NCBI GenBank assembly: GCA_026625185.1
Contig: CP113000.1
Span: forward strand, 2,622,651 to 2,654,650
Origin: Thermodesulfobacteriota bacterium
GTDB lineage: Bacteria > Desulfobacterota > WTBG01 > JAGOGO01
Direction of reading: 5' to 3'
DNA length: 32,000 nucleotides
Within the stretch, counting starts at the first letter, position 1, and the number at the start of each line of letters is the position of its first letter. Under the pieces are notes generated by a model. That model was not told the DNA's origin and did not search any database. It saw nothing but the letters and a program-made list of their open reading frames with translations. The position numbers and the translations under genes were made by a program. Below, in pieces: positions 7,671-23,465 of this stretch.

Positions 7671-7718
7671 CCATAGTTAGTGTTAATTTTTAGAAATATT
7701 TTTTTGTTTATTCTAAAT

Positions 7719-7757
7719 ATCACATTATTATAAAAAAGGAAAACCAGTCAATGTGAT
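7719..7757 (-). promoter_or_regulatory. Candidate sigma70-type thrC promoter bracketed by an 8-bp inverted repeat
   Basis: On the minus strand: TTGACT (7751-7746), 16-nt spacer, AATAAT (7729-7724), about 50 nt upstream of the thrC start. The inverted repeat ATCACATT (7719-7726) / AATGTGAT (7750-7757) spans it. Confidence 0.25.
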
Positions 7758-8432
7758 TTTTCTTTGCGAAAGAAATGCTTCGATTTAAGCGGATAGCTCA
7801 CATTATCGGGTTTATTGCATTGGAAATTGCAGGGATTGTTTTCGGTTGTTCGTAGGCTAGGTTGGTATTGTTAAGATTTTGGGGCCTTCGATTTTTATTT
7901 TGAAGTTTCCTTTAGTGGGGTTTAATTTTGTTTTTTTTGGCATATTAAGCCAGACAAATTTTAAGAGGACGATTCGATGCATCGATCTCTCTTGAGGCGA
8001 TGCGGTGTGATTTCCACTTGGCATAAGCTTTTTAACATTAAGTTTGGACTGCTGTTTAAAAGGTTTTAATTTTTTCCAGATTGTTCACACCTCGGAAGAA
8101 GGGAAAAACCAGATTTCCTTTATTCCGTTCCCAATTCCGAGTTTTGCGCAACATTTAAAATAGTTAAAGAAAGCGAGCACTTACTCTAACCACGAAAGCA
8201 GAATAGCCCATGAAAATCAAAAATGCCAAACAAGATATCCAAAAATTATTATTCTGCTTCACAGAGGCTTTTTCAAGACCTTCATTCAAAAGACCAAACG
8301 GTTTCCCTGGACGTGATCATTCGAAACTTACCTAGAAACATTATGGGCCCAAAAAAGTGCAGGACTTAAGTTAATATAACTAAGGATTATTTCAGGGTAA
8401 TTGAAGAAGGTAAAAAAATAAAAAAATTTATC

Positions 8433-8462
8433 TTGACAGCGAAAATTTAAATCGAGTATTTT
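8433..8462 (+). promoter_or_regulatory. Candidate sigma70-type promoter of the nuo operon
   Basis: TTGACA (8433-8438), 18-nt spacer, TATTTT (8457-8462), about 115 nt upstream of the nuoA ATG. Confidence 0.35.
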
Positions 8463-8465
8463 AGG

Positions 8466-8496
8466 GACAATTGTCAGGTGAATGATTATTCATTCA
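8466..8496. promoter_or_regulatory. Two adjacent palindromes at the predicted nuo transcription start (candidate operators)
   Basis: GACAATTGTC (8466-8475) is a perfect 10-bp palindrome. TGAATGA-ttat-TCATTCA (8479-8496) is a 7-4-7 palindrome whose half-sites resemble Fur-box half-sites but with 1 nt extra spacing. Confidence 0.25.
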
Positions 8497-8529
8497 TTAA
8501 TGTTATTTATAACTAATTAAATTTTTTTT

Positions 8530-8565
8530 AGGGGAGGGAAATAGATTCCCCTCTTTTTTATTTTA
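8530..8565 (+). terminator. Terminator-like hairpin plus T-run in the nuoA leader (possible attenuator or sRNA 3' end)
   Basis: AGGGGA (8530-8535) pairs with TCCCCT (8547-8552) across an 11-nt loop. It is followed by cTTTTTTaTTTT and preceded by an A/T run. It ends 13 nt before the nuoA ATG. The stem is only 6 bp. Confidence 0.3.
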
Positions 8566-8577
8566 GTAACCTAAGTT

Positions 8578-8934
8578 ATGCTCAAAGAATACGCTCAAAT
8601 TTTAATCCTTATGATAATTGTTTTCGGTTTTGCTGGAGTAACTCTTCTTCTCTCTTCTCTTTTAGGGCAAAAAAAGAAGAGTGACACCAAGCTTATGCCC
8701 TACGAATGCGGTATTGATCCGGTTGGTACTGCCCGGCAGCGGTTTTCGATCAAATTCTACATTACCACCATGATTTTTATTCTCTTTGATATTGAAGCAT
8801 TATTTCTTTACCCCTGGGCGGTGATTTATCGGAGGCTCGGGGTATTTGGACTGGTAGAGATGGGGGTTTTTATCCTACTTCTGCTGGTCGGTTTTATCTA
8901 TGTTTGGAAGAAAGGGGCTTTTGAATGGGATTAG
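8578..8934 (+). CDS. nuoA: NADH-quinone oxidoreductase subunit A
   Basis: 118 aa, 3 TM segments, conserved YECG(I/F)DP motif (PYECGIDP) and FDIE motif. Confidence 0.9.
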
Positions 8935-9404
8935 AAAGCCACTTAGGTGAAAATATCATCACCACGACATTAGAGTCGCTTGTAAACTGGGGACGAAGGT
9001 CCTCTTTATGGCCGGCAACGTTTGGTTTGGCTTGCTGTGCCATTGAGATGATGAGTTCTTGTATGCCCCGGTATGACTTAGCCCGGTTTGGCGCGGAGGT
9101 GTTCCGGGCCTCACCCCGGCAAGCGGACCTGATGATTGTCGCCGGAACGGTGACCAACAAGATGGCTTCGGTGGTGCGGAGGATTTACGAACAGATGGCG
9201 GAGCCAAAATGGGTGATTGCCATGGGTGCGTGCGCGGCTACCGGAGGAATCTTTAATTCGTATGCAGTATTGCAAGGCGTTGACCGGATTATTCCGGTGG
9301 ATGTTTATGTGCCCGGTTGCCCTCCTAAACCTGAAGGGCTGATTCACGCAATCATTCAGATCCAAAATAAGATTAAACACGAAAAATTTTCGGACCGGAC
9401 GTAA
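8925..9404 (+). CDS. nuoB: NADH-quinone oxidoreductase subunit B (N2 cluster)
   Basis: GLACCAIEM, the MGACA region and PGCPP motifs provide the four Cys ligands. Overlaps nuoA by 10 nt. Confidence 0.92.
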
Positions 9405-9411
9405 GCGAACT

Positions 9412-9930
9412 ATGTCTATCAACAAAGAACACCCGGCGATAAAAAAACTCGAACAAGCTTTCCCCGGCGTAGTTAAAAAAATTATCACGGCTTTCGGGGA
9501 GACCGGGATCATCGTGGATAAGGACGATGTAAAGAGAGTGTGTCGCCTTCTCAAAGAAGACAAGGAACTCCGCTTTGATCTTCTTTCTGACCTCGCGGGA
9601 GTGGACTACCAAGGAAAAAAGGAAAAGCGGTTTGAGTTAGTCTACCAGCTTTATTCCACCCGAACCCATCAGCGTTTGCGAGTGAAAACTGAGGTGGGTG
9701 AAAATGAAAGTGTCCCTACCATGACCACTGTTTGGAAGGCTGCGGACTGGCCGGAACGGGAGTGCCACGAGATGTTTGGGATTGAATTCGAGGGGCATCC
9801 TGGTCTGATGCGGCTTCTAACGATTGAAGAATTTAATGGGTTTCCGCTTCGGAAAGACTTTCCTTTACTGGGCAAGGCGGAGATAATCGCTGGATTCGAA
9901 GGAGGAGTGCAGTGGCGGAAACGCGACTAA
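9412..9930 (+). CDS. nuoC: NADH-quinone oxidoreductase subunit C (30-kDa subunit)
   Basis: Conserved core WPERECHEMFGIEFEGHP...LRKDFPL. Confidence 0.9.
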   Translation: MSINKEHPAIKKLEQAFPGVVKKIITAFGETGIIVDKDDVKRVCRLLKEDKELRFDLLSDLAGVDYQGKKEKRFELVYQLYSTRTHQRLRVKTEVGENESVPTMTTVWKAADWPERECHEMFGIEFEGHPGLMRLLTIEEFNGFPLRKDFPLLGKAEIIAGFEGGVQWRKRD

Positions 9931-11108
9931 ACCCACAGGTGCGCACGGAAACCATGATTTTGCACATGGGGCCTCAGCACCCAAGCACTCACGGGGTGTT
10001 GCGGGTTGACCTGGAGCTTGACGGAGAAGTTATCCAAAGGGCGATCCCTTACCTGGGACACCTCCATCGGGGAATTGAAAAACTTGCCGAAAATAAAACT
10101 TTTCATCAAGTTATTCCGTTAACCGACCGGTTAGATTACCTCGGGCCCATGGTGAACAACCTCGGCTACGCCTTGGCGGTGGAAAGGCTTTTGGGGCTTC
10201 AGGTGCCGGAGCGCTCACAAGTGATTCGGGTCATCATGGCGGAATTGACCAGGATCCAGAGTCATTTGGTCTGGATGGGAACCCACGTTCTTGATATTGG
10301 CGCGATGAGCCCGATCATGTATTGTTTCCGCGAGCGAGAACAGATTTTAGATATCTTCGAGATGGTGGCGGGAGCGCGGATGAATCCGAGCTATATCCGG
10401 GTCGGCGGAGTAAACGGAGATCTGATGAGCGCGGCCAGGGATAAGATTGCGATGTTTGCGGAAACTTTTCCCAAGCACATTAAAGAATACGAAGATTTGC
10501 TCACCAATAATCCGATCTGGATCAACCGGACGAAAAGGGTAGGCACAATAACCGCGGAAGAAGCGATCGACTTGGGAACAACCGGCCCGACGCTACGGTC
10601 CTGCGGCTATAAATGGGACTTAAGGAAGACGAACCCTTACAGTGGTTATGAAACCTATCAATTCGACATCATCCTGGGTAAAAACGGGGACGTGTATGAC
10701 CGGTATTGGGTGCGGATTGAAGAAATGAAACAGAGTATTGATTTAATTAAACAGGGGTTAAAAAAACTTAAACCCGGGCCGATTTACGCAGATGAGGCAA
10801 AAGTCATTCCCCCGATAAAAGAAAAAGTAATGACGGACATCGGCGCCTTAATTCACCATTTCAAGATTATCAGCGAAGGGTTCAAAGTGCCAGAAGGGGA
10901 GGTTTACCAGGCGATTGAGACCCCGCGAGGTGAATTAGGGTTTTATATTGTCAGTGATGGGAGTTCTAAGCCCTATCGGTTTAAAATCAAGACCCCTTCG
11001 TTTATGAATTTGATGGCGCTTGACACTTTGGCAAAAGGCCGATTGTTGGCCGATATTGTGGCTATTATCGGCAGTATGGATATTGTTCTAGGCGAAATTG
11101 ATAAATAA
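9912..11108 (+). CDS. nuoD: NADH-quinone oxidoreductase subunit D (49-kDa subunit)
   Basis: GPQHPSTHGVLR, HRGIEKL and the C-terminal DIVLGEIDK motif. GTG start at 9912 lies 6 nt after GAAGGAGGA. Separate from nuoC, not a CD fusion. Confidence 0.92.
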   Translation: MAETRLNPQVRTETMILHMGPQHPSTHGVLRVDLELDGEVIQRAIPYLGHLHRGIEKLAENKTFHQVIPLTDRLDYLGPMVNNLGYALAVERLLGLQVPERSQVIRVIMAELTRIQSHLVWMGTHVLDIGAMSPIMYCFREREQILDIFEMVAGARMNPSYIRVGGVNGDLMSAARDKIAMFAETFPKHIKEYEDLLTNNPIWINRTKRVGTITAEEAIDLGTTGPTLRSCGYKWDLRKTNPYSGYETYQFDIILGKNGDVYDRYWVRIEEMKQSIDLIKQGLKKLKPGPIYADEAKVIPPIKEKVMTDIGALIHHFKIISEGFKVPEGEVYQAIETPRGELGFYIVSDGSSKPYRFKIKTPSFMNLMALDTLAKGRLLADIVAIIGSMDIVLGEIDK

Positions 11109-11112
11109 AATT

Positions 11113-13071
11113 ATGGGCAAAGTATTATTCAGCAGCTGGGCGCACAAAGTAATTGATAACCGGGGGAAAGCTCCGGAGACCTTCCAGGAAGCTGAACCGA
11201 AAAAATTGCCGGAAATTTTTGCCGGAAATAAAAAAATTATCGGTTTCATGGGATGGGACGGCGTGGTGCTGAAGGATGAGAGTGTTAATATTGTAGACAT
11301 GGCGCGCGCGTATCTTGAAGCTGTTCAGGGCGCTTCGTGCGGACGGTGTATCCCCTGCCGGATAGGGACTCGGATAATGTTGGAAGCGATAAACCGCATT
11401 TGTTCCGGCAAAGGGAAAAAGGAAGATTTAGAAACTCTGGAAAGACTTGGTCAGGAAATTCTTACGAGCGCAAAATGTGAGATCGGTAAATCCGGTCCGC
11501 TTCCCCTTCTCCATGCGCTCACCCACTTTAAAACAGCATTTGAAAAACAACTTACCGAGAAAGAAGAACTGCCCAAAGGTAATTATCACTTCCAGGTTAC
11601 GGCGCCGTGTATGGATGCGTGCCCGGTGCATCTGGATGTGCCTTCCTACGTTGAACTGATCAAGAACCTCAGGTTTGAAGACTCATTGAGCCTTATTCGG
11701 GAGCGTAATGCTCTTCCCGGCGTGTGCGGTCGGGTATGTATCCGACCTTGCGAGTTTCATTGCCGGAGGGCAAACCTGGATGATCCGATTCAAATTAAGA
11801 CCTTGAAGCGGTTTGTTGCGGACTATGAGATTGAGCACGAGATCGTGCCTCAGATTAAAAGTGAAGCCAAGAAAGAGCACAAAGTCGCCGTGGTCGGCGC
11901 TGGACCGGCGGGCTTGGCATGCGCCCTTTATTTAAGTTTAAGGGGATATCCGGTTAAAATTTTCGAGACTTTGCCGGAAGGCGGCGGAATGGCGGCCGTG
12001 GGTATTCCCGATTACCGACTTCCCCGGAACATTCTTCAGTATGAAATTGATGTAATTAGAAAATTGGGGGTGGAAATCCAGTACAACACCCGCGTGGGCA
12101 AAGACATTACTTTAGAAGAGATGAAAGCGCAAGGTTTCCGCGCTATCTTTATCGGCGTTGGTGCGCACTTAAGCAAAAAGATGGGAGTGGACGGCGAAGA
12201 CGCCGGGTATCAAGGGTTTGTCAAAGGCGTTGATTTTCTCCGGGACATCAACTTGGGCAAGGAAATTTATAAAGGGAAAAAGCTCCTGGTGGTCGGCGGA
12301 GGAAATGTGGCGATCGACTGTGTGCGCTCTGCCTTCCGGGTAGGGTTTACTGATTCCAATATCGTTTATCGTCGGTCGCGCGCTGAGATGCCGGCGGATC
12401 CCGTTGAAATTGAAGACGCTGAAATAGAAGGAGTGAATTTTCATTTTCTCACTCTTCCCACTCGCATCATTACTGAAAAAAACCGGGTTAAAGCGGTGGA
12501 ATGCATTCGGATGGAGTTGGGTGAACCGGACGCCAGCGGACGGCGAAGACCTGTAGAAGTCAAAGGATCGGAGTTTATTATCGAGACCGATGTGTTGATT
12601 CCGGCTATTGGCCAGGATGTTGATCTCTCCTTGCTTCCTGAAGGGAGTGGTGTTGAAAAAACTAAGTGGAGCACGATTGTGGTAGATGCGGACAGCATGG
12701 CAACCTCACAAGAAGGAATTTTTTCCGGTGGTGATTGTGTGACCGGCCCGGACGTGTTGGTGGGAGCATTAGCGGCTGGTTATGATGCTGCCATCGCCAT
12801 TGATCAATACCTCACCGGTCAAAAAATGATTCTTCCTGATTTCCGACGGGAAGAAAAAATCGTAAAAGAAATCGGCGTGTATGATAAAAATGAAAAACTG
12901 GGGATTGTTGGTGGGGTTCCAAAGTCAAAGATGGGACATCTCCCCCCGCAGACTCGCATTCACACTTTTGATGAAGTAGAGTTAGGATTTACCCCGGATA
13001 AGGCGATTCGCGAGGCAGAACGTTGCCTCCGTTGCTATCGGGTAGCTCTTTATGCGACGAAAACAGAATGA
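11113..13071 (+). CDS. Fusion flavoprotein: NuoF C-terminal N3 [4Fe-4S] segment + GltD/SfrB-type 2x[4Fe-4S]/FAD/NAD(P)H oxidoreductase, occupying the nuoE-nuoF position
   Basis: I prefer ATG 11113 because the track start at 11098 is a non-ATG codon inside the nuoD stop region. Residues about 50-130 read DESVNIVDMARAYLEAVQGASCGRCIPCRIGT...AKCEIG, matching the NuoF motif ESCGxCxPCRxGT plus a 4th Cys 40 residues later. Next comes a GltD-type Fe-S domain: APCMDACPVHLDVPSYV...NALPGVCGRVCIRPCEFHC. There are two dinucleotide folds, VAVVGAGPAGLACA and LLVVGGGNVAIDC. No FMN/NADH-binding N-terminal half of NuoF is present, and no NuoE-like ORF is in the operon. Confidence 0.8.
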   Translation: MGKVLFSSWAHKVIDNRGKAPETFQEAEPKKLPEIFAGNKKIIGFMGWDGVVLKDESVNIVDMARAYLEAVQGASCGRCIPCRIGTRIMLEAINRICSGKGKKEDLETLERLGQEILTSAKCEIGKSGPLPLLHALTHFKTAFEKQLTEKEELPKGNYHFQVTAPCMDACPVHLDVPSYVELIKNLRFEDSLSLIRERNALPGVCGRVCIRPCEFHCRRANLDDPIQIKTLKRFVADYEIEHEIVPQIKSEAKKEHKVAVVGAGPAGLACALYLSLRGYPVKIFETLPEGGGMAAVGIPDYRLPRNILQYEIDVIRKLGVEIQYNTRVGKDITLEEMKAQGFRAIFIGVGAHLSKKMGVDGEDAGYQGFVKGVDFLRDINLGKEIYKGKKLLVVGGGNVAIDCVRSAFRVGFTDSNIVYRRSRAEMPADPVEIEDAEIEGVNFHFLTLPTRIITEKNRVKAVECIRMELGEPDASGRRRPVEVKGSEFIIETDVLIPAIGQDVDLSLLPEGSGVEKTKWSTIVVDADSMATSQEGIFSGGDCVTGPDVLVGALAAGYDAAIAIDQYLTGQKMILPDFRREEKIVKEIGVYDKNEKLGIVGGVPKSKMGHLPPQTRIHTFDEVELGFTPDKAIREAERCLRCYRVALYATKTE

Positions 13072-15635
13072 ACGACAACGTAACGATTACTATTGACGGA
13101 AAAGGAATTTCAGTTCCTAAGGAGACCACGATCTTGGCGGCAGCCAGGGCACTGGGGATAGAAATTCCCACTCTTTGTTATCACCCCAAGCTGCTGCCTA
13201 TCGGTTCCTGCCGGCTTTGTCTGGTTGAAATCGAGGGATACGAAAAACCGGTTGCCTCCTGCACCACCCCGGTAGTAGATGCGATGAAGGTGACCACCCA
13301 GTCAGAAAAACTTCTTGCTCTGCGCAAGGAAGCCATTCAATTCATGTTGGTTAATCACCCGCTCGATTGCCCGATCTGTGACAAGGGCGGGGAATGCCGG
13401 CTTCAGGACTTGGCTTTTGAGTTCGGACTCGACCAGGAAGTTTTTAAGATAGCGGCGTCTCCTCTTCTTATTGACTACCTTTCACCGTTGGTGGAACGGA
13501 ATAACAATCGCTGTGTTCGTTGCGGTCGTTGTGTGAGTGTCTGTAATGAGATCCAGGGTGAGATGGCGATTGAATGGGTGAATCACGGTTATGATACGGA
13601 AATTCTCCCCCGGGGAGGTTATCCGCTTAATTGCGAGTTTTGCGGACAATGTATTGCCCACTGCCCGGTCGGAGCATTGCTCAACCGCCCCTTTAAGTAC
13701 AAAGCCCGGGCTTGGGAATTGGAAAAGATTCATTCGGTTTGCCCGTATTGCGGCGGCGGGTGCGCGATTGAGCTGAACGTGCGCAAGAACAAGGTGTTAC
13801 GGATTACCTCTTCTTACGAAGATACTCATAACCAGGGCAACCTGTGCGGCCGGGGCAACTTTGGCTTCGGCTTTATTAATAACAACAACCGGCTTCATTC
13901 TCCTTTAATCAAGCGGCGCAAGGACCAGGTGCCGGTTACCTGGGAAGACGCGCTCGGGAGCGCGTCCGAGCAGTTAAAGAAAATCCTAAAGTCTTCCGGA
14001 CCGGAAAGCATTGCCGGCTTAGGATCTCCTCGGGTTTCCAATGAAGATAACTATCTTTTTCAGAAATTTTTCCGGGCCGTTATCGGCACGAACAACATTG
14101 ATAGCTCAGTGCATTTTAATTACCGCAATCTGGAGCGAGGGTTGCGAGCAACATTGGGATTGTCTGCAAGTTCTCACGGATTTGATGCTCTGGAAAAAGC
14201 TCAGGTCATTTTTGTTCTCGGCGCTGATGTGCGCGCCGAAAGTCCTCCCGCCGCCCTAAAAATAATGAAAATGGCGCGAGTGCACGGATCCACGCTGGTG
14301 GTAGCTAATCCCCGGAAAACCAAGCTCGATAAATTTGCCAATGTGCACCTGCGCTACCGTCCTGGAACAGAGCTTCTTTTGGTCGCGGGAATTCTGAAAG
14401 CGGTCGGGGAAAAAAATAAAGACCTGCTTGACAACATTCCTCAGTTCCCGGTTCTTAAAAAATCTTTGGAAGGAATAATCCTTCAGGAAATTTCCGAGGT
14501 TACGGGTGTTCCCCTTGAACAGATTTATCAGGTAGCCACGATTTTAGCGAAGAGAGAAACCGGATGTATTGTTTTTGGCTATGAAGTTTTTACTCATCAG
14601 CAGGCCAAAGAGGTAGTAGTTTCGTTAGGCAATTTAGCTTTTTTATCAGAGAAGGTCAGCCAGAAAGACCGAGGTCTCATTCCGATTATCGCCAAAAACA
14701 ATGTCCAAGGGATGCTGGACATGGGCGTGATGCCGGATCTCCTTCCCGGCTATCAGCAATTTGAAAAAGGTGCGCCTTTTGAAAAAGTCTGGAGGCAGCC
14801 GATACCGAAACAACCGGGTAAAAATGCGGAAGCAATTCTACAGGGTATTCTTGATGGTAAAATAAAAGCTCTTTATCTCATGGGTTGCGATCCGCTCATG
14901 GAGTTTCCTTTCCCGGATAAGTGGGAAGAAGCATCGGACAAACTGGAATGGCTGGCAGTGCAGGATATTTTTTACACCGAGGTAGCGACCAAGGCTGATT
15001 ATGTTTTCCCGGCGGTAACCTTTGCGGAAAAAGAAGGTACCTTTACCAGCGGCGAACGACGGGTACAGAAATTTTTCCCGGGAATTTCGCCTTATCGGAG
15101 CGCCTTACCGGATTGGGAAATCATCCAAAGACTTTCTCAGTTGATGGGCTATCCCATGGCTTATGCTCATCCGAAAGCGATCATGAATGAGATTACGTCT
15201 TTGGTGCCGCAGTACAATGAGATTACTTATGAACGTTTGGGAAGGAATGGGATAACATTGTCAAGCACCGAGGGTATTCCTCATTTTACTCCTTTTTCTA
15301 TTAATAAAGTGGCCAAACCAAAACCCGGAAGCTTTACCTTAATCACCGGAACCGCTTTTTTTCATTCCGGTACGCTTTCGACTAATTCAGGTCTTACTGT
15401 TTTGGGCAGCAAAGCGTGGGTGGAGATCAATTCTGAGGATGCTGGAAGCCTGGAAATACATGAAGGAGACCCGGTAACTATTTCCTCGGCAGGCAAAGCA
15501 ATAAGCGCTGCGGCTAAAATAACCTCCGCTGTTCCCCGGGGAGTAGTGTTTGTTCCTAATAATTTTCGGGATGTTCAAGTGAATCAATTGGTCGCCAATC
15601 AGAACTATTGCCCGGTAGAGGTCACCAAGGGGTAG
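13068..15635 (+). CDS. nuoG: NuoG-like 75-kDa Fe-S subunit (SfrA/FdhA-like molybdopterin-oxidoreductase fold without catalytic Cys/Sec)
   Basis: ATG 13068 overlaps the upstream TGA (ATGA). 2Fe-2S motif: CYHPKLLPIGSCRLCLVEIEG...ASC. N5-type motif: HPLDCPICDKGGEC. Two CxxCxxCxxxC motifs: RCVRCGRCVSVC and CEFCGQCIAHCP. Molybdopterin-type cluster: CPYCGGGC...LCGRG. At the FdhA active-site position after GTNNID the sequence is SSVHFNY, with no Cys or Sec. A C-terminal beta-barrel domain is present. Confidence 0.85.
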   Translation: MNDNVTITIDGKGISVPKETTILAAARALGIEIPTLCYHPKLLPIGSCRLCLVEIEGYEKPVASCTTPVVDAMKVTTQSEKLLALRKEAIQFMLVNHPLDCPICDKGGECRLQDLAFEFGLDQEVFKIAASPLLIDYLSPLVERNNNRCVRCGRCVSVCNEIQGEMAIEWVNHGYDTEILPRGGYPLNCEFCGQCIAHCPVGALLNRPFKYKARAWELEKIHSVCPYCGGGCAIELNVRKNKVLRITSSYEDTHNQGNLCGRGNFGFGFINNNNRLHSPLIKRRKDQVPVTWEDALGSASEQLKKILKSSGPESIAGLGSPRVSNEDNYLFQKFFRAVIGTNNIDSSVHFNYRNLERGLRATLGLSASSHGFDALEKAQVIFVLGADVRAESPPAALKIMKMARVHGSTLVVANPRKTKLDKFANVHLRYRPGTELLLVAGILKAVGEKNKDLLDNIPQFPVLKKSLEGIILQEISEVTGVPLEQIYQVATILAKRETGCIVFGYEVFTHQQAKEVVVSLGNLAFLSEKVSQKDRGLIPIIAKNNVQGMLDMGVMPDLLPGYQQFEKGAPFEKVWRQPIPKQPGKNAEAILQGILDGKIKALYLMGCDPLMEFPFPDKWEEASDKLEWLAVQDIFYTEVATKADYVFPAVTFAEKEGTFTSGERRVQKFFPGISPYRSALPDWEIIQRLSQLMGYPMAYAHPKAIMNEITSLVPQYNEITYERLGRNGITLSSTEGIPHFTPFSINKVAKPKPGSFTLITGTAFFHSGTLSTNSGLTVLGSKAWVEINSEDAGSLEIHEGDPVTISSAGKAISAAAKITSAVPRGVVFVPNNFRDVQVNQLVANQNYCPVEVTKG

Positions 15636-15638
15636 GAG

Positions 15639-16634
15639 ATGGTTGATTTATTATTCATATTAGTTAAAATTGTGGTTGTGTTTGTCGCCCTACTTTTATC
15701 GGTGGCGTACCTTACCTGGCTGGAACGGAAGGTGCTGGGACACATGCAAAGCCGGCTCGGCCCTCATCGGGTAGGGATTAATGGATTATTACAACCGATT
15801 GCTGACGGAATAAAACTCTTTTTTAAAGAAGATGTGATTGTTACTGCTGCGGACAAAGTTGTATACCACTTAGCCCCGTTTATTATTGTTTCAACCGCGC
15901 TTTTAACAATAGCCGTCATTCCGTTTGGCGATGCAATTAAAATTTTTGGTCATAATATATTGTTACGGATCGCGGATGTTAATATCGGGCTTCTCTATAT
16001 CTTTGCCTTGTCGTCTTTGGGCGTTTATGGAATTGTGCTGGCGGGGTGGTCGTCGAACAATAAATACGCCCTTATGGGAGGATTACGGTCCGCTGCCCAA
16101 ATGGTAAGTTATGAGCTTCCGCTGGGTCTATCGACCATCGGCGTGTTGATGCAGGCGGAAAGCTTAAGTCTAAGTAAAATTGTTCAGGCCCAGGCGGCCC
16201 AGGGCTGGTTTTTCTTGCCTCAGTTTATCGGTTTTTTAATTTTCTTTATCTGTGCGGTGGCGGAGTGCAATCGCACTCCCTTTGATCTTCCGGAAGCGGA
16301 AGGTGAGCTGGTAGCCGGATTTCACATTGAATATTCAAGTATGAAGTTCGCACTTTTCTTTATGGCCGAATACGCCAGCGTTATTCTTATGAGCGCTTTG
16401 ATTGTAACGCTTTTCTTTGGTGGGTGGTTGGGACCGAGTTTTATTTCGTGCCCCGCCTGGTGCGGCCCCATCTGGTTTGGCGTTAAAGTTTTTATATTTA
16501 GTTTTATTTTTATCTGGCTGCGGGCAACCTTTCCGAGGTTTCGGTATGATCAGTTGATGAAATTCGGGTGGAAAGTTCTTTTTCCGTTGAGCATTATCAA
16601 CATTGCGGTTACCGCAGTCGTGATGATGAGATAG
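15639..16634 (+). CDS. nuoH: NADH-quinone oxidoreductase subunit H
   Basis: LTWLERKVLGHMQSRLGP, AECNRTPFDLPEAEGELVAG and RATFPRFRYDQLM motifs. Confidence 0.92.
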   Translation: MVDLLFILVKIVVVFVALLLSVAYLTWLERKVLGHMQSRLGPHRVGINGLLQPIADGIKLFFKEDVIVTAADKVVYHLAPFIIVSTALLTIAVIPFGDAIKIFGHNILLRIADVNIGLLYIFALSSLGVYGIVLAGWSSNNKYALMGGLRSAAQMVSYELPLGLSTIGVLMQAESLSLSKIVQAQAAQGWFFLPQFIGFLIFFICAVAECNRTPFDLPEAEGELVAGFHIEYSSMKFALFFMAEYASVILMSALIVTLFFGGWLGPSFISCPAWCGPIWFGVKVFIFSFIFIWLRATFPRFRYDQLMKFGWKVLFPLSIINIAVTAVVMMR

Positions 16635-16643
16635 AGCAAAAGC

Positions 16644-17069
16644 ATGATCGAAAAAACGATTAAAGGCATTTGGGCACTACTAATAGGGTTGAGCGTGACC
16701 GTTAAATTTTTCTTCACCCGACCGGTTACGATGAAATACCCGGAAGAAAAACGGGAACCGTATCTTCGCTACCGGGGTTCCCATATTTTAAGGCTGGATG
16801 AAAAAGGGAAGGAGAAATGCGTTGCTTGCTGTTTGTGCGCGACGGTTTGTCCGGCCCAGGTGATTACCATCGAAGCCGGTGAAGGAAATGAACACGAAAA
16901 GTACCCGGTCACCTTTGAAATTGATATGGGAAAATGTATTTTTTGCGGGTATTGTGTGGAAGCATGCCCTAAGGCAGCCATTATCATGAGCCAGTCATAC
17001 GAACTGGCTGAATACCGACGCGAAGATTTAAGCTATGACAAAGAACGGCTCATAAAAACCGGAAAATGA
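16644..17069 (+). CDS. nuoI: NADH-quinone oxidoreductase subunit I (2x[4Fe-4S] ferredoxin)
   Basis: CVACCLCATVCP and CIFCGYCVEACP motifs. Confidence 0.9.
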   Translation: MIEKTIKGIWALLIGLSVTVKFFFTRPVTMKYPEEKREPYLRYRGSHILRLDEKGKEKCVACCLCATVCPAQVITIEAGEGNEHEKYPVTFEIDMGKCIFCGYCVEACPKAAIIMSQSYELAEYRREDLSYDKERLIKTGK

Positions 17070-17078
17070 GTTAAGAAA

Positions 17079-17600
17079 ATGGAAGGAATTATTTTTTACA
17101 TTATTGCCTTAGTTACGATCATTGCCGCACTGCGGGTGGTGATAGGGCGCAATGCGATTCACAGTGCCCTGTGGTTAGTGTTGGTGTTTTTTTGTTTCGG
17201 CGCGCTCTATGTGCTTTTACAAGCCGAATTTGTCGCGGCAATTCAAGTCATTGTTTATGCCGGAGCCATTATGGTCCTGTTCCTCTTTGTGATCATGCTT
17301 CTCCGGGTTGATCGGGCGGAGGAGTTGCTTTCCAAACACCGGGTCCAGAGAGTGGTGGGTGCGCTGTTGGGGATCGCTTTACTGGCGGGAATCGGAATGA
17401 CGGTGATGGTTGATCAAGTGCCGGGTAAAGTCAGCGAAAAAAGCCTCGAATCCTTGAATGCGCAGGCCGGAGGAAATACCCAGGCGCTGGCGGAAAAGCT
17501 TTTTACAGATTATCTGCTTCCCTTTGAAGTTACCTCAGCCCTTCTGCTGGCGGCGATTGTAGGCGCAGTAATTTTAGCTAAACGAAAAGAGGAGAAATAA
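17079..17600 (+). CDS. nuoJ: NADH-quinone oxidoreductase subunit J
   Basis: 173 aa membrane protein in the operon position of nuoJ, with the VQVIVYAGAIMVLFLFVIM motif. Confidence 0.88.
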   Translation: MEGIIFYIIALVTIIAALRVVIGRNAIHSALWLVLVFFCFGALYVLLQAEFVAAIQVIVYAGAIMVLFLFVIMLLRVDRAEELLSKHRVQRVVGALLGIALLAGIGMTVMVDQVPGKVSEKSLESLNAQAGGNTQALAEKLFTDYLLPFEVTSALLLAAIVGAVILAKRKEEK

Positions 17601-17603
17601 CCC

Positions 17604-17906
17604 ATGATACCCTTATCTCACTTTTTGGGTTTGAGCGTGATCTTGTTTACTATCGGAGTGTTGGGGGTCGTGATCAGAAGGAATGCGATCGTGATTTTTA
17701 TGTGCATCGAGCTTATGCTCAATGCCGTAAATTTAAGTTTTGTGGCTATTGCCCGGAGTTTATCGTCTTTAGATGGTCAGGTCATTGTCCTTTTGGTAAT
17801 GACGGTGGCGGCAGCGGAAGCAGCCGTGGGTCTTGCGATCATTATCAGCATCTTCCGGACTAAGGGAACCATCAATGTTGATGAGATAAATTTACTTAAA
17901 TGGTAA
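17604..17906 (+). CDS. nuoK: NADH-quinone oxidoreductase subunit K
   Basis: 100 aa, 3 TM segments, with the conserved Glu-containing motifs [11 protein letters not shown] and [11 protein letters not shown]. Confidence 0.9.
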
Positions 17907-17920
17907 GAAAGTAACGTATT

Positions 17921-19891
17921 ATGCTGGACCTCATCTGGTTAGTTCCATTTTTACCCTTGTGTGGAGTCATCATTAACGGACTGCTGGGAATACGGTTTCC
18001 CAAACGCCTCACCGGAACCATCGGCTCGCTTACGGTATTCGGCTCTTTTCTGGTATCGTGCGGTGCTTTTTATGAACTTATCCAACTTCCGGCTGCCGAA
18101 CGCATCCGAGAAGTGATCCTCTGTCAGTGGATCCCGAGCGGTGATTTGGTGGTTAATCTCGGTTTCCTGGTCGATCCGCTTTCCATGGTGATGCTCTTGA
18201 CCGTTAGCGGCGTGTCTTTCCTTATTCACGTTTATTCGATCGGGTATATGCACGAGGATGAAGGATTTAGACGGTATTTTGTTTATCTCAACCTTTTTGT
18301 CTTTTTTATGCTTATCCTGGTTGCCGCCAACAGTTTTCTCCTGATGTTTGTGGGCTGGGAAGGAGTGGGACTTTGCTCTTATCTTCTTATCGGATTCTGG
18401 TACCAGCGCCAGGCTCCTGCGGACGCCGGTAAAAAGGCTTTTGTTGTTAACCGGGTTGGAGACTATGGATTTTTATTGGGCATGATGCTCATTTTTGTAA
18501 CCTTCGGGAGCCTCGATTTTTTAAAAGTATTCCCGCTTGCTCATCAGTATCTTCCCTATGGCGGAATTACGGCTACCATGATTACCCTTCTTCTTTTTGT
18601 TGGAGCGTGTGGGAAATCCGCTCAATTCCCGCTTTACGTATGGCTTCCTGATGCCATGGAAGGCCCTACTCCGGTGAGCGCTCTAATCCATGCTGCCACC
18701 ATGGTTACTGCCGGGGTCTATATGGTAGCGCGCTGCAACGCTTTCTATGTGTTGGCACCTCTATCTCTGGGGGTGGTCGCCATAATAGGGGTGGGGACCG
18801 CGCTTTATGCCGCGACCATGGGACTTACTCAGTTTGACATTAAACGGGTGCTCGCTTATTCAACGATCAGTCAGCTTGGCTACATGTTTCTGGCCTGCGG
18901 TGCGGGGGTCTTCGCGGCCGGAATTTTTCACCTTATGACCCACGCGTTTTTTAAAGCTCTTCTTTTCCTCGGTGCGGGGAGTGTGATGCATGCTTTGTCC
19001 GGCGAGCTTGATATCCGAAAAATGGGAGGATTGAGGAAACAGCTTCCGTGGACCCATTCAACCTTTTTAATCGCCACCCTGGCGATTGCCGGTATAGCCC
19101 CGCTGGCCGGGTTTTTCAGCAAAGATGCGATCCTGTGGGGAGCTTTTCAGAAGGATTCCTGGTTATGGCTGGTGGCCGCGATCACTGCTTTGCTTACCGC
19201 TCTTTATATGTTTCGCGCGGTGTTTATGGCTTTTTACGGCAAGCCGCGCCTTGATGAGCATGTTGCAAAACACGTGCATGAATCCCCGCCGGTGATGATT
19301 TTACCTCTCGTGGTGCTGGCCATTTTATCCGTGGTTGGCGGGTGGATCGGTATTCCCCCTTCTTTGGGAGGCGGAGAATGGTTCCAGGAATTTTTAGCGC
19401 CGGTGTTTAAGAGCGCGGCTCCGGTTGCGGTTCATCATCAGGCCGGAGGCCTGAGTTTGGTAGGCCTTGCTCAGGCAGCCGAAAGTTTAGGGCATAGCGA
19501 GGAGCTTTCCTTGGAATGGGCGCTAATGGGAGTTTCATTAGGAGTGGCGATTGTGGGTATTAGCTTGGCCTATTACCTTTACTTAAAAAATCCGGAAGCA
19601 CCAGGGAAAATTGCGAATAGTTTTAAAACCCTTTATTGGATTATTTTCAATAAATATTATATGGATGAAATTTATAATGCCATTTTTGTGCAGCCCATTC
19701 GTCGCGGCTCAGAATGGCTGTGGCACTCAGTTGACGAAAACGTTATTGATGGAACCGCTAATGGCGCCGGCAGGTTGTGTACCGGTTTGAGCGCCATTCT
19801 TAAGCGGCTTCAAACCGGTTATGTCCAGAACTATGCGATCTGGATGTTGGTGGGAACAGTACTGCTTATGGCATACTATTTTTTCCGCTAA
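17921..19891 (+). CDS. nuoL: NADH-quinone oxidoreductase subunit L (antiporter-like, with C-terminal lateral helix region)
   Basis: 656 aa. Mrp-antiporter-like motifs WEGVGLCSYLLIGFW and PTPVSALIHAATMVTAGVY. Confidence 0.92.
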   Translation: MLDLIWLVPFLPLCGVIINGLLGIRFPKRLTGTIGSLTVFGSFLVSCGAFYELIQLPAAERIREVILCQWIPSGDLVVNLGFLVDPLSMVMLLTVSGVSFLIHVYSIGYMHEDEGFRRYFVYLNLFVFFMLILVAANSFLLMFVGWEGVGLCSYLLIGFWYQRQAPADAGKKAFVVNRVGDYGFLLGMMLIFVTFGSLDFLKVFPLAHQYLPYGGITATMITLLLFVGACGKSAQFPLYVWLPDAMEGPTPVSALIHAATMVTAGVYMVARCNAFYVLAPLSLGVVAIIGVGTALYAATMGLTQFDIKRVLAYSTISQLGYMFLACGAGVFAAGIFHLMTHAFFKALLFLGAGSVMHALSGELDIRKMGGLRKQLPWTHSTFLIATLAIAGIAPLAGFFSKDAILWGAFQKDSWLWLVAAITALLTALYMFRAVFMAFYGKPRLDEHVAKHVHESPPVMILPLVVLAILSVVGGWIGIPPSLGGGEWFQEFLAPVFKSAAPVAVHHQAGGLSLVGLAQAAESLGHSEELSLEWALMGVSLGVAIVGISLAYYLYLKNPEAPGKIANSFKTLYWIIFNKYYMDEIYNAIFVQPIRRGSEWLWHSVDENVIDGTANGAGRLCTGLSAILKRLQTGYVQNYAIWMLVGTVLLMAYYFFR

Positions 19892-19900
19892 GGAGAATCG

Positions 19901-21478
19901 ATGGAGTATCCGATCCTCAGCTATTTAATATTTTTACCCTTGATCGGGGTGTTTGCGCTTTTTTTCCTTGACCACACGAAAGAAAAGCTTTTAAAAGGGG
20001 TCGCCCTTCTTATCACGCTGATCGAGTTTGTCCTTTCTCTGCCCTTGTTTTTTATGTTCCAGGTGGAAAACGGGGGGATGCAGTTTACCGAATATCTTTC
20101 CTGGGTACCGCGCCTGGGAATTGCTTATCGGGTGGGACTCGATGGGCTCAGCCTCTGGCTGGTGCTGCTGACTACCTTTCTATCCTGTATCGCCGTGTTA
20201 GCCTGCTGGGAAGACATTAAACAGCATGTCAAAGAGTTCCTCGTCTGTATTCTCCTTATGGAAACAGGGATGGTGGGGGTTTTTGTGGCCCTGGATGTTT
20301 TTCTTTTTTATGTTTTCTGGGAAGTAATGTTGATTCCGATGTACTTTATTATCGGGGTGTGGGGCAATCCCGCGCGGAGAATTTATGCGGCCATAAAGTT
20401 TGTTCTTTTCACCATGGTTGGAAGCTTACTCATGCTCGTGGCGATTCTCTACATTTACTTTTACCATGCGAATGTTACCGGGGAATACACTTTTGACCTT
20501 TTAAAATGGTATAATCTGACGATCCCCCACTCAGTGCAAACCTGGCTTTTCCTCGCTTTTGGACTGGCGTTTGCCATCAAGGTGCCGATGTTTCCTTTTC
20601 ACACGTGGTTACCGGACGCGCACACCGAAGCGCCTACGGTCGGCAGCGTGCTTCTGGCGGCGGTTCTCTTGAAGATGGGAACCTATGGTTTTCTCCGCTA
20701 TAACTTGCCGCTTTTTCCGGAAGCGTTCGTCAGTTTTGTGCCGCTCATATCGCTGCTGGCAGTGATAGGAATTATTTATGGCGCTTTGGTAGCCATGGTG
20801 CAGGCGGATGTTAAACGCTTAGTTGCTTTTTCTTCCGTAAGCCATCTGGGTTTTGTGATGCTTGGTCTTTTTACCTTGAACCTCCAGGGTATTCAAGGCG
20901 GAATCATTCAGATGATCAACCATGGGCTTTCGACCGGAGCTTTGTTTCTCATCGTGGGAATGATCTATGAGCGCCGACATACCCGGATGATCGTGGAATT
21001 CGGCGGATTATCCAAGGTGATGCCCATTTATGCTACTCTTTTTATGATTGTGACCCTTTCTTCGATCGGGCTTCCCGGGCTGAATGGTTTTGTGGGCGAA
21101 TTTTTGATTCTCTTGGGAGCTTTCCGTTCGCAGTTCACTAATGTGATATTCGTAGTGTTTGCGGCAACCGGCGTCATCCTCGCCGCGGTTTACATGCTGT
21201 GGATGTTTCAGCGCGTTATGTTTGGCGAAGTGACGAATCCGAATAATAAAAACCTCCCCGATTTGAGCAAACGGGAAATCATGGTTTTAGTGCCGGTGGT
21301 AATTTTTATTATCTGGATCGGCGTTTATCCCAAGCCATTCCTTAAACCTATGGAAGCAACCGTTAATTCCATGATAAAAAGAGTTGAGCAAAGGGTGAAC
21401 GTGAAAACAGTCCAGGAAGGAAAAGTGTCCTTCAAGGCTTTGAAGGTAGTTGAAAGTCAGGGAGAACAAGGAGCTTAG
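19901..21478 (+). CDS. nuoM: NADH-quinone oxidoreductase subunit M
   Basis: 525 aa. Motifs FWEVMLIPMYFIIGVWG and HTWLPDAHTEAPTVGSVLLA. AAGGAG Shine-Dalgarno upstream. Confidence 0.92.
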   Translation: MEYPILSYLIFLPLIGVFALFFLDHTKEKLLKGVALLITLIEFVLSLPLFFMFQVENGGMQFTEYLSWVPRLGIAYRVGLDGLSLWLVLLTTFLSCIAVLACWEDIKQHVKEFLVCILLMETGMVGVFVALDVFLFYVFWEVMLIPMYFIIGVWGNPARRIYAAIKFVLFTMVGSLLMLVAILYIYFYHANVTGEYTFDLLKWYNLTIPHSVQTWLFLAFGLAFAIKVPMFPFHTWLPDAHTEAPTVGSVLLAAVLLKMGTYGFLRYNLPLFPEAFVSFVPLISLLAVIGIIYGALVAMVQADVKRLVAFSSVSHLGFVMLGLFTLNLQGIQGGIIQMINHGLSTGALFLIVGMIYERRHTRMIVEFGGLSKVMPIYATLFMIVTLSSIGLPGLNGFVGEFLILLGAFRSQFTNVIFVVFAATGVILAAVYMLWMFQRVMFGEVTNPNNKNLPDLSKREIMVLVPVVIFIIWIGVYPKPFLKPMEATVNSMIKRVEQRVNVKTVQEGKVSFKALKVVESQGEQGA

Positions 21479-21479
21479 A

Positions 21480-22928
21480 ATGACGATACCAGACGTAAAC
21501 TGGACTTCCATCGGAACAGAACTCATACTTATCAGCACCGCAGTATTGGTGATTTTCTTTGACCTCGTGGTTAAAGATAAAAAGAAAGACAGCCTTGGAT
21601 ACCTTACCGTGCTCGGTATGCTCGGGGCGTTAGTTTTTGCAATGACGGATAAGGAAGGGACGGCCATAGCTTTTGGGGGGATGATTACTAATGATAGTTT
21701 TACCCAGTTTTTAACCGTTCTCATCGTGGGCGTGGCTATTATCGTTACCCTGATGTCTATGCAGTCTCTCCGGGAGGGAAGCATGGATGTGGGGGGTTAC
21801 CACACGCTGGTGCTTCTGGCGACCGTAGGGATGCTGCTTATGGTTAAGGGGCTTGATCTGATCATCATTTTTCTCGGGTTGGAAACTCTTTCAATCGCCA
21901 TCTATGTGTTGGCTGGTTATCGTAAGGGTGCGGAACAAAGCGCGGAGGCCGCGTTTAAGTATTTCCTGCTGGGGGCGTTTGCAGCGGCTTTCTTGCTCTA
22001 TGGGATTGCCCTGATTTACGGAGCAACCGGAACCACGCGGATTGAGGGGATCGCCCAGTACATTGCCCTTAAAAACTTGGGAACGAATCCGCTTTTGCTG
22101 TTAGGGGTTGGCCTTCTTCTGGTTGGTTTGGGCTTTAAATTAGCGTTAGTGCCGTTTCACTCCTGGACCCCGGATGTGTATGAAGGAGCGCCGACTGCGA
22201 TTACTGCCTTTATGGCGGTAGGAGTAAAAGCCGCGGCTTTTGCCGCATTTGTGAGAATTTTTGGGGGAGCACTACCCCTGATTGCATTTCAATGGAAAGA
22301 TGTATTGTGGATGCTGGCGGTTATCACCATGACCGTGGGGAACGTGGTGGCTTTATCTCAGACGAATATTAAAAGGATGCTCGCTTACTCCAGCATCGCG
22401 CATGCCGGGTATATTCTTGTGGGCATTATTGCCGGCGGGAGCGTGGGCTGGTCAGCCGTGCTCTACTATTTAGGGGCGTACGCGTTTATGAATTTGGGCG
22501 CCTTCGGCATCGTGGTCTTTTATGGGTACAAACAAGAAGCTAATGTGGAGATCGCTGATTATGCGGGTCTGGGTTTTCGATACCCGTTTTTGGGAGCCGC
22601 CATGGCTATCTTCCTTTTTTCTTTGGCCGGGATTCCGCCGTTAGCCGGGTTTATGGGAAAGTTTTATATTTTTAGTGCCGCGATTAAATCCGGTTATATT
22701 TGGCTTACCATTATCGGAGTCATGAACAGTCTGGTTTCCGTTTTTTACTACTTCCGGGTTACCGTGATTATGTACATGAAAGAGCCGATTAAAGAAGTAG
22801 TTCTCAACTATTCCCTTCCCATCACAATCGTGCTGATCATTGCTTTAGTCGGAACCATCCAAATGGGCATTGCTCCTAACTTTTATCTGGAACGCGCCCT
22901 TGATTCTATTAAGTGGCTGATAGGCTGA
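21480..22928 (+). CDS. nuoN: NADH-quinone oxidoreductase subunit N
   Basis: Motifs LETLSIAIYVLAG and HSWTPDVYEGAPTAITAFM. I prefer ATG 21480 (MTIPDVNW), which sits after the GGAGAACAAGGAG region and the nuoM stop. The track start at 21450 would overlap nuoM. Confidence 0.9.
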   Translation: MTIPDVNWTSIGTELILISTAVLVIFFDLVVKDKKKDSLGYLTVLGMLGALVFAMTDKEGTAIAFGGMITNDSFTQFLTVLIVGVAIIVTLMSMQSLREGSMDVGGYHTLVLLATVGMLLMVKGLDLIIIFLGLETLSIAIYVLAGYRKGAEQSAEAAFKYFLLGAFAAAFLLYGIALIYGATGTTRIEGIAQYIALKNLGTNPLLLLGVGLLLVGLGFKLALVPFHSWTPDVYEGAPTAITAFMAVGVKAAAFAAFVRIFGGALPLIAFQWKDVLWMLAVITMTVGNVVALSQTNIKRMLAYSSIAHAGYILVGIIAGGSVGWSAVLYYLGAYAFMNLGAFGIVVFYGYKQEANVEIADYAGLGFRYPFLGAAMAIFLFSLAGIPPLAGFMGKFYIFSAAIKSGYIWLTIIGVMNSLVSVFYYFRVTVIMYMKEPIKEVVLNYSLPITIVLIIALVGTIQMGIAPNFYLERALDSIKWLIG

Positions 22929-23222: not shown

Positions 23223-23465
23223 ATGACAATTCTATCGGCATCCGAAGCAAGAAAACGCTTATATAATCTTGTTGATGAGGTTAAAGAGACGCACGAACCA
23301 GTCCAAATCAAAGGCAAGAGGAATTCAGCAGTCTTGATCTCCGAGGAAGACTGGCGGGCGATAGAGGAGACTCTCTATCTTACTTCCATTCCCGGTATGC
23401 GTGAGTCTATTAAGAAAGGTCTTAATATCCCGATTGAAAAGTGTGATGAGGAACCTGGCTGGTGA
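23223..23465 (+). CDS. yefM: Type II antitoxin, Phd/YefM family
   Basis: 80 aa. The N-terminus (ILSASEARKRLYNLVDEV...PVQI...AVLISEEDWRAIEETLYL) is typical of YefM. AGGAGG Shine-Dalgarno upstream. Confidence 0.85.
   Translation: MTILSASEARKRLYNLVDEVKETHEPVQIKGKRNSAVLISEEDWRAIEETLYLTSIPGMRESIKKGLNIPIEKCDEEPGW

Follow-up and report, generated by a model that had tools for sequence, protein, structure and literature searches.

A complex I operon of Thermodesulfobacteriota with an SfrBA-type gene pair at the NuoE-F-G position, predicted to be NADPH-dependent

We analysed a 32,000-nucleotide stretch of contig CP113000.1 of a Thermodesulfobacteriota bacterium (assembly GCA_026625185.1, positions 2,622,651 to 2,654,650; the whole stretch is referred to here as the window), which carries a respiratory complex I operon with a non-canonical pair of genes at the place of the electron input module. 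Thirteen co-directional genes run in the order nuoA-B-C-D-X-G-nuoH-I-J-K-L-M-N on the forward strand with tight junctions, where X denotes the open-reading frame (ORF) at 11113–13071, encoding an SfrB-like flavoprotein of 652 amino acids with three Pfam domains, and G denotes the NuoG-like gene at 13068–15635, encoding an SfrA/NuoG-like iron-sulphur subunit of 855 amino acids (assigned by Pfam, NCBIfam and cluster motifs). The TAA stop of nuoD ends at 11108, leaving a gap of 4 nt before the start of X, the stop of X and the start of G overlap as ATGA, and nuoH begins 3 nt past the stop of G. The start of G is most likely this ATG at 13068, the TTG at 13023 which opens the ORF being the less likely candidate. 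An earlier sequence-only reading of the locus had held that nuoE and nuoF are missing from the operon, and Pfam, NCBIfam and tblastn on the window all bear this out: NuoE (PF01257) had no Pfam match among the window ORFs scanned, X had no Pfam match to PF01512 (flavin mononucleotide (FMN) domain), PF10531 (SLBB domain) or PF01257, and tblastn with NuoE and the FMN part of NuoF as queries against the 32 kb returned nothing (best E 1.4). Together the three methods ruled out that the window hides an FMN domain or a NuoE.

The slot between nuoD and nuoH is instead filled as that reading had described it, by a single NuoF-tail::GltD/SfrB-like flavoprotein followed by a NuoG-like protein, as both domain content and homology demonstrate; the motifs it had quoted, including a fourth cysteine 40 residues downstream of the first three, are all in place, and the profile search it had proposed for the 652-residue product recovered PF10589, PF14691 and PF07992 and no PF01512. 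From the N-terminus, X comprises an N3-type [4Fe-4S] domain equivalent to the C-terminal domain of NuoF (amino acids 62–145, 11296–11547; PF10589 NADH_4Fe-4S, E 7e-23), a GltD/DPD-type domain for two [4Fe-4S] clusters (amino acids 163–243, 11599–11841; PF14691 Fer4_20, E 7e-26), the flavin adenine dinucleotide (FAD) and NAD(P)H Rossmann domains (amino acids 257–556, 11881–12780; PF07992 Pyr_redox_2, E 1e-29) and a C-terminal cysteine pair conserved in homologues, C638-x2-C641 (ERCLRCY, 13024–13035). Against the NuoF model TIGR01959, X scored 63 bits (cutoff 559) and matched only model positions 290–409. The N3 domain finds its PDB counterparts in the C-terminal portions of HydB, HoxF and NuoF chains, and its predicted ligands are C76-x2-C79-x2-C82 (SCGRCIPC, nt 11335–11358) and C122, 40 residues on. 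The NuoF tail is not special to the window operon; SfrB and FdhB(NADP) proteins share it as a family.

To follow these residues through the family we used two alignments, A1 of diverse homologues of X (n = 9) and A2 of close, nuo-embedded ones (n = 30). All four N3 cysteines (C76, C79, C82, C122) are invariant in the 30 nuo-embedded homologues. The GltD-type cysteines of X are C166, C170, C205, C209, C213 and C217, with C166, C170, C209, C213 and C217 invariant in A2. The C-terminal pair C638/C641 is invariant in 9/9 diverse and 30/30 close homologues, aligns to a motif of NfnA (9n5u_A), and probably completes the ligand set of both GltD-type clusters. The two Rossmann folds carry GAGPAG (residues 262–267, FAD) and GGGNVA (395–400), and in the second of them Y419-R420-R421, invariant in both A1 and A2, aligns with Y310-R311-R312 of T. 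maritima NfnB, the residues named as binders of the NADP(H) phosphate in a preprint (10.1101/717884). The second Rossmann fold of X is thus predicted to bind the NADPH 2'-phosphate through this YRR motif. An AlphaFold2 model of X built from A2 reached a mean predicted local distance difference test score (pLDDT) of 90.5 and a predicted template modelling score (pTM) of 0.90, which implies that the protein, as modelled, is one rigid, confidently packed body; its best Foldseek matches were NfnABC chains 9bov_A and 9n5u_A, StnC 8oh5_C and NfnL 5jca_L.

Two further parts of X are of note. Residues 1–61 (11113–11295) have no Pfam assignment, and S7, W9, D15, R17, G47, W48 and G50 within them are invariant in all lineages; this segment may be an SLBB remnant or an interface element. 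The third N3 cysteine (C82, nt 11356–11358) is retained in the nuo-embedded Desulfobacterota clade, Nitrospinales and Moorella, and is replaced by glycine in Geobacter/Geomonas SfrB-type proteins (L008, L014) and in the Campylobacterota X homologue (L037). The Geobacter SfrB-type proteins have an additional cysteine (KCTLC) near C122, which might stand in for the missing third ligand.

Pfam matches of G comprise Fer2_4 (PF13510), NADH-G_4Fe-4S_3 (PF10588), Fer4_Nqo3 (PF22117), Molybdop_Fe4S4, Molybdopterin and Molydop_binding, and the protein falls just short of the NuoG model TIGR01973 (462 bits, cutoff 470) and scores 474 bits against the formate dehydrogenase alpha-subunit model TIGR01591 (cutoff 666). 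The cluster motifs of the NuoG part are kept, with N1b at C37/48/51/65 and N5 at H97/C101/C104/C110, as is an N7/FS0-type site at C225/228/232/260. Two full CxxCxxCxxxC motifs at residues 149–159 and 189–199 (window 13512–13667) provide one [4Fe-4S] site beyond those of canonical NuoG, and this extra cluster together with the N7/FS0 site could connect the molybdopterin-type domain to the main chain of G. That domain, by its residues, is complete but catalytically dead: in place of Cys386, His387 and Arg587 of R. capsulatus FdsA, G has N351, Y352 and an Ile in the alignment, there is no in-frame TGA for selenocysteine in G, and the FdsA catalytic residues are likewise lost in 43/43 SfrA-type sequences aligned. 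In phmmer comparisons G scored 580–690 bits against SfrA-type proteins and 421–431 against R. capsulatus FdsA, with the best canonical NuoG (M. smegmatis) at 296 bits and E. coli NuoG at 204. Because G scores so far higher against SfrA than against NuoG, we assign the X-G pair to the SfrBA lineage. The sequence-only reading had offered, as its alternative, an SfrBA-like soluble pair inserted into an 11-subunit operon; as evolutionary history this holds (580–690 bits against SfrA, at most 296 against NuoG), and the further idea that the pair is still a soluble, unattached enzyme stays as an unlikely rival, weighed below.

The remaining genes make up the complete 11-subunit core (nuoA, B, C, D, H, I, J, K, L, M, N), with N2, N6a/b and quinone-site (Q-site) motifs kept, and judged by domains and motifs all 11 subunits of the Q- and P-modules are ordinary. 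Upstream of X lie nuoA (8578–8934; PF00507, E 4e-39), nuoB, which holds cluster N2 (8925–9404; PF01058, NF005012 259 bits against a cutoff of 116, ligands C37, C38, C103 and C132), nuoC (9412–9930; PF00329, E 6e-44) and nuoD, the quinone-site subunit (9912–11108; TIGR01962 572 bits against a cutoff of 459), in which the Q-site motifs GPQHPSTHGVLR (HPxxHG) and DRLDY are both present. Downstream of G follow nuoH (15639–16634; PF00146, E 2e-131), nuoI for N6a and N6b (16644–17069; Fer4 families, two CxxCxxCxxxCP motifs), nuoJ (17079–17600; PF00499), nuoK (17604–17906; PF00420), nuoL, of 656 amino acids with a long C-terminal extension (17921–19891; PF00361, PF00662, PF01010), nuoM (19901–21478; PF00361) and nuoN (21480–22928; PF00361, PF19530), all on the forward strand. 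The nuoN start is likely the ATG at 21480, right behind the nuoM stop, rather than the TTG at 21450 which opens the ORF (translation LKVRENKELRM-TIPD).

A survey of gene neighbourhoods, which the sequence-only reading had called for, established that the arrangement recurs. Thousands of proteins in the database search share the architecture of X, and the same three domains are found in a Geomonas SfrB-type protein (L008), in Nitrospinales (L019) and in Campylobacterota (L037). With clustering at 90% identity, at least 120 protein clusters are at least 56% identical to X, and on this basis the nuo-embedded clade is, by sequence clustering, a large one: 6/6 cluster members examined (P0005, P0025, P0088, P0058, P0119, P0113) were nuo-embedded, with X identity falling from 84% to 56%. 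The order nuoD-X-G-nuoH was found in 14/14 independent loci in which X is 54–92% identical, the window counted (L001/2, L003/4, L005/6, L007, L048, L049, L050, L058, L061, L128, L129, L130 and the window); L007 is an uncultured delta-proteobacterial metagenome-assembled genome (MAG), and L048, L049, L050, L058 and L061 are metagenome loci. Neither NuoE nor an FMN-type NuoF was present within the nuoD-X-G-nuoH operons. Divergence from locus to locus runs in parallel for NuoD, NuoH, X and G, as would fit a long history of joint inheritance, and members of the clade are, by source names, Desulfobacterota/Thermodesulfobacteriota MAGs. The X-G feature is real, conserved and widespread. A one-off insertion or an assembly artefact was ruled out by the 14 independent loci, drawn from different samples, that share the identical order. 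No cultured carrier of nuoD-X-G-nuoH was found in a contig scan which used window-protein peptides and gave mostly SfrB-type loci plus one close genome (L007). One of the operons (L003) adjoins apparent DsrK-, DsrO- and DsrP-type genes, as assigned by Pfam domains.

At lower identity the pair is found in three other settings. X-G pairs with X at or below 50% identity, mostly of Geobacter type, stand alone (besides the nuo-linked loci of Nitrospinales and Campylobacterota): in ca. 35 Geobacter/Desulfuromonadales loci an isolated gene for a protein 44–50% identical to X over residues 1–648 is followed by a G homologue at 36–41%; the homology to SfrB-type proteins is full-length, with phmmer scores of 570–690 bits. 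In three Nitrospinales MAGs (L016, L019, L021) X-G lies directly upstream, on the same strand, of an 11-gene nuoABCD-HIJKL... cluster; in L019, X-G occupies 9645–14224 and nuoA starts from ca. 14182. In Campylobacterota (L037, L065, L069, L073, L077) the order is nuoABCD-[77-aa PF16514]-X-G-G-nuoH. An X homologue of Moorella (L018) is 46–49% identical. In a neighbour-joining tree of X, computed without support values, the nuo-embedded Desulfobacterota clade stood beside the Nitrospinales clade with Campylobacterota basal; the tree was not used to decide the order of nuo-linked and soluble forms.

The Campylobacterota loci bear directly on what is new here. The sequence-only reading had cited 'unrelated genes' in the nuoE/F slot of this phylum and had set the window layout apart from that version, and its view of the two layouts as unrelated was not supported. 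Chemoautotroph-type loci (Sulfurimonas/Sulfurovum type) hold an X homologue with the same Pfam domains in the same nuoD...nuoH slot, followed by NuoG-like genes, and with the YRR motif kept. Campylobacterota complexes of 12 subunits with a NuoG-like protein and without NuoE and NuoF are known, and a 2019 preprint had already identified the 'NuoF replacement' of Sulfurimonas denitrificans (Suden_1824) as an NfnB homologue with conserved NADPH-binding residues, alongside two NuoG copies, and proposed, from genomics only, reverse electron transport to NAD(P)+ and ferredoxin (10.1101/717884). The two forms nonetheless differ. The Campylobacterota X is only 36–38% identical (tblastn; 40% in A1), its third N3 cysteine is Gly, a 77-aa PF16514 subunit lies between nuoD and X (in L037 at 9768–10001, named 'putative NADH-ubiquinone oxidoreductase chain E'), and X is followed by two NuoG paralogues, neither of which has a Pfam molybdopterin-domain match. 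The window, in contrast, has a four-cysteine N3 site and a single G with a complete, dead molybdopterin-type domain, with neither the PF16514 subunit (the nuoD-X gap is 4 nt) nor a second NuoG paralogue. No description of the Desulfobacterota nuoD-sfrB-sfrA-nuoH arrangement was found in a full-text literature search that left most subscription journals outside its scope, and the same search found no biochemical tests of X-G-type complex I enzymes of this kind. The modular principle and the homologous Sulfurimonas case are thus already in the literature, and the Desulfobacterota layout would add a non-canonical complex I with an SfrBA-type N-module, predicted to be NADPH-dependent.

Among characterised enzymes, SfrAB of Geobacter sulfurreducens is the counterpart in which both subunits are full-length homologues (X 44–50%, G 36–41% identical), with the same gene order of B then A, a NuoF tail in SfrB and no formate dehydrogenase Cys/selenocysteine-His site. 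It is named an NADPH:Fe3+ oxidoreductase in the literature. Unlike X-G, its genes stand alone outside any nuo operon, whereas the window context points to the Q-module of complex I, and the Geobacter-type SfrB has the Gly-substituted N3 site with the extra cysteine near C122 described above. Geobacter SfrA and SfrB are said to co-purify as an NADPH-oxidising enzyme in work of Kaufmann and Lovley from 2001. Compared with canonical NuoE-F-G, the pair occupies the same operon position and keeps an N3-type domain, N1b, N4, N5 and an N7-type site, but it has no NuoE (and so no N1a), no FMN/NADH domain and no SLBB domain, its predicted flavin is FAD, bound in a GltD fold that bears an NADPH motif, and it has additional [4Fe-4S] clusters, two in X and one in G.

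Structural precedent for such a chain comes from NfnABC and StnABC (9bov, 9n5u, 8oh5), which match the GltD part of X best in both sequence (E 1e-118) and fold (Foldseek E 6e-52) and in which, likewise, a GltD-like NADPH/FAD domain occurs together with NuoG-like clusters and an FdhF-like domain that is inactive. In the StnABC structure a non-bifurcating GltD-like FAD feeds a linear chain of clusters leading to the NuoG-like domain, and the FdhF-like part is inactive. These soluble enzymes differ in that the GltD unit is inserted in the NuoG-like chain and full NuoE-/NuoF-like bifurcating subunits are present, whereas in the window GltD is fused to a NuoF remnant, the NuoE and FMN domains are missing and the context is that of a membrane complex. 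Exchange of the input module is an established principle for complex I, with FpoF, flavodoxin or ferredoxin as input and a proposed Nuo-Bfu; the 11-subunit ferredoxin-dependent enzymes (NDH-1 type) and Fpo/FpoF share the 11-subunit core and an exchangeable input module with the window operon but have no NuoG-like subunit, their input being ferredoxin directly or FpoF, an unrelated flavoprotein. NUO-2 of Nitrospina gracilis and Kuenenia is a different variant again, with a HydB-like NuoF2 without an FMN site.

Two fusion proteins met in the survey are related to X by their parts. Adjoining the nuo operon in L005 (500–6832, minus strand), L006 and L049 is a divergent cluster encoding NuoE, a 1038-aa NuoF::GltD fusion and a split FdhA-like protein. 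X is collinear with amino acids 450–1034 of the L005 fusion at 47% identity; the fusion differs in keeping PF01512 and SLBB (plus PF10589, PF14691 and PF07992), in having a NuoE partner and in lying in a separate, divergent cluster. X thus resembles this fusion minus its FMN/SLBB part and may be a truncated relative. In L068 (3300–6314), and also in L070 and L071, a 1004-aa protein joins NuoH (PF00146), GltD (PF14691 and PF07992, no NuoF tail) and a NuoI-like di-cluster domain, in an operon of the order nuoA-B-C-D-[H::GltD::I]-J-K-L-M-N without NuoG. This fusion indicates that complex I-like enzymes do have GltD-type NAD(P)H modules built directly into them.

Taken as a whole, the operon would encode a 13-subunit complex I whose N-module is the SfrB/SfrA-type pair X-G instead of NuoE-F-G, and we hold with moderate confidence, as the probable reading, that it is an NADPH:menaquinone proton-pumping enzyme, or one working in reverse. 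In this scheme NADPH would bind at the second Rossmann fold of X and reduce the FAD, from which single electrons would cross both GltD-type [4Fe-4S] clusters and reach, in the NuoF-tail domain of X, the N3-type [4Fe-4S] cluster. From there they would enter G at the N1b [2Fe-2S] cluster, continue through N4/N5-type clusters and leave by way of NuoI (N6a/b) and NuoB (N2) to menaquinone, with proton pumping by NuoH/A/J/K/L/M/N. The reaction would be reversible, so that NADP+ reduction by menaquinol, driven by the proton motive force, is also possible. The order of carriers, from NADPH through FAD, iron-sulphur clusters, N3-like cluster and G to the Q-module, is the one the sequence-only reading had suggested, and it fits the cofactor motifs as well as the StnABC/NfnABC structures.

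Several lines of evidence lead us to place X-G as the N-module: the domains of X, with N3, GltD-type and C-terminal ligands and the YRR motif invariant in homologues; the N1b, N4 and N5 motifs kept by G and the N2, N6a/b and Q-site motifs kept by NuoB, NuoI and NuoD; the tight junctions and strict nuoD-X-G-nuoH order over a large clade; the nuo linkage in Nitrospinales and Campylobacterota; and the precedent of StnABC/NfnABC, in which a GltD-like FAD feeds a NuoG-like domain. The NuoF-tail domain is also the part of NuoF that contacts NuoG in canonical complex I. Docking of X-G on the Q-module, the preference for NADPH over NADH, the direction of the reaction and the inter-cluster distances are what we infer on top of these observations, and some points weigh against the scheme. 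The closest characterised relative, SfrAB, is soluble; co-transcription alone fits a physical subunit and a functionally coupled soluble enzyme alike; NADPH specificity is predicted from a conserved motif; G appears to be a closer relative of SfrA and FdsA than of any canonical NuoG, with its docking surface for NuoI, NuoC and NuoD presumed; and the extra [4Fe-4S] and N7/FS0 clusters of G would be idle in a simple linear chain.

In the likeliest of the rival readings, X-G would be a soluble SfrAB-type NADPH oxidoreductase, merely co-transcribed with an 11-subunit ferredoxin-type complex I and coupled to it by a diffusible carrier such as ferredoxin. The SfrB/SfrA ancestry of the pair, its standalone existence in the ca. 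35 Geobacter/Desulfuromonadales loci, and its place in Nitrospinales outside the nuoD-nuoH slot and ahead of a complete 11-gene set all speak for it, and 11-subunit complexes are well known to function with no N-module. It would however have to explain why the insertion sits precisely at the canonical N-module slot with overlapping start and stop codons, why that slot is kept in 14/14 loci across 54–92% identity, and why Campylobacterota use the same nuoD...nuoH slot. A soluble relay from NADPH via ferredoxin to Nuo also needs extra coupling, being uphill by established midpoint potentials, and the full N1b, N4 and N5 relay of G has no obvious purpose if the acceptor is merely soluble. On balance we regard a soluble pair as unlikely.

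The most far-reaching form of the N-module reading holds that an SfrBA-derived NADPH:menaquinone pump, or NADPH generator driven by the proton motive force, is widespread in anaerobic Desulfobacterota and reveals the role of SfrAB as a free or dockable 'N-module'; at its boldest the enzyme would pump protons while confurcating or bifurcating among NADPH, ferredoxin and quinone, with a second entry or exit, for ferredoxin, at either the extra cluster/N7 branch of G or, in X, the NfnB-like FAD. We consider this extended picture speculative and quite improbable. Close to it is the proposal that X-G is a two-substrate module, confurcating NADPH and reduced ferredoxin or running in reverse from menaquinol, to which we give little credence. 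X is homologous to the bifurcating NfnB/NfnL (38–43% identity), the extra [4Fe-4S] and N7/FS0 sites of G would link the dead molybdopterin-type domain to the chain, a like idea has been proposed for the Sulfurimonas homologue (10.1101/717884), and for Geobacter there is a proposal of Nuo-Bfu complexes whose input modules confurcate. However, the GltD-like FAD is non-bifurcating in StnC and in NfnA of NfnABC, bifurcation there requires the NuoE/F-type FMN module which is absent here, and X-G has neither an NfnA-like partner nor a ferredoxin-binding domain. The arginine that marks bifurcating FAD sites is conserved in bifurcating and non-bifurcating types alike, so sequence does not discriminate between them at this residue.

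Genes at another place in the genome might also supply canonical NuoE and NuoF that assemble on G, leaving X as an accessory or alternative subunit, since nuoE, nuoF and nuoG are often located outside nuo operons and the L005/L006 lineage has the opposite-strand NuoE and NuoF::GltD pair adjoining its operon. This seems highly improbable: X keeps the NuoF domain that packs against NuoG and, to go by complex I structures, would compete for the site, the L005 genes form a separate cluster with FdhA-like genes of their own, and the other 12 nuoD-X-G loci have no NuoE/NuoF within 10 kb. That G is a working formate dehydrogenase and X its NADP-linked beta subunit, in a formate:quinone or formate/NADP-linked complex I, is scarcely credible, for although many homologues bear the Joint Genome Institute (JGI) name 'formate dehydrogenase (NADP+) beta subunit', G finds its best PDB matches among FdsA-type enzymes (the 421–431 bits above) and the Moorella homologue L018 is 46–49% identical to X, the catalytic Cys/selenocysteine, His and Arg are missing in G (Asn351, Tyr352, Ile, no in-frame TGA) and in all 43 SfrA-type homologues aligned, and the score of 474 bits lies well under the Fdh-alpha cutoff, and on these residues the reading was rejected.

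Public names within the X clade conflict and are probably misleading ('formate dehydrogenase beta subunit', 'dihydropyrimidine dehydrogenase subunit A', 'FAD-dependent oxidoreductase'), and the 'formate dehydrogenase' label is, on the residues compared, wrong for the SfrA-type family, because the catalytic residues are lost in 43/43 of its aligned members. Metabolic reconstructions of carriers probably misread their complex I, either as 'lacking NuoEF' or as a formate dehydrogenase. To our knowledge, characterised complex I enzymes all use NADH, ferredoxin/flavodoxin or F420H2. If X-G is indeed the N-module, a respiratory complex I would form a direct link from the pool of NADPH to menaquinone and to the proton gradient, and anaerobes with NADPH-yielding catabolism, for which the NADP-dependent isocitrate dehydrogenase of acetate oxidisers may serve as an example, could conserve energy without a transhydrogenase. 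Run in reverse, the same enzyme would supply NADPH for biosynthesis. A function would also be assigned to the widespread SfrAB family, and the operon would add a clear case of modular exchange at the N-module position.

Outside the operon, a non-coding gap of ca. 900 bp upstream of nuoA (7671–8577) contains no Rfam match, tRNA or convincing ORF. A promoter-like TTGACA-18-TATTTT lies within it at 8433–8462; such matches are no commoner there than chance predicts, and neither the window nor the 900-bp region gave more than chance matches when scanned for Rfam families, tRNAs, promoters and terminators. At the other end, ca. 300 nt downstream of nuoN, genes for a Phd/YefM antitoxin and a YoeB/ParE-like toxin are located at 23223–23725.

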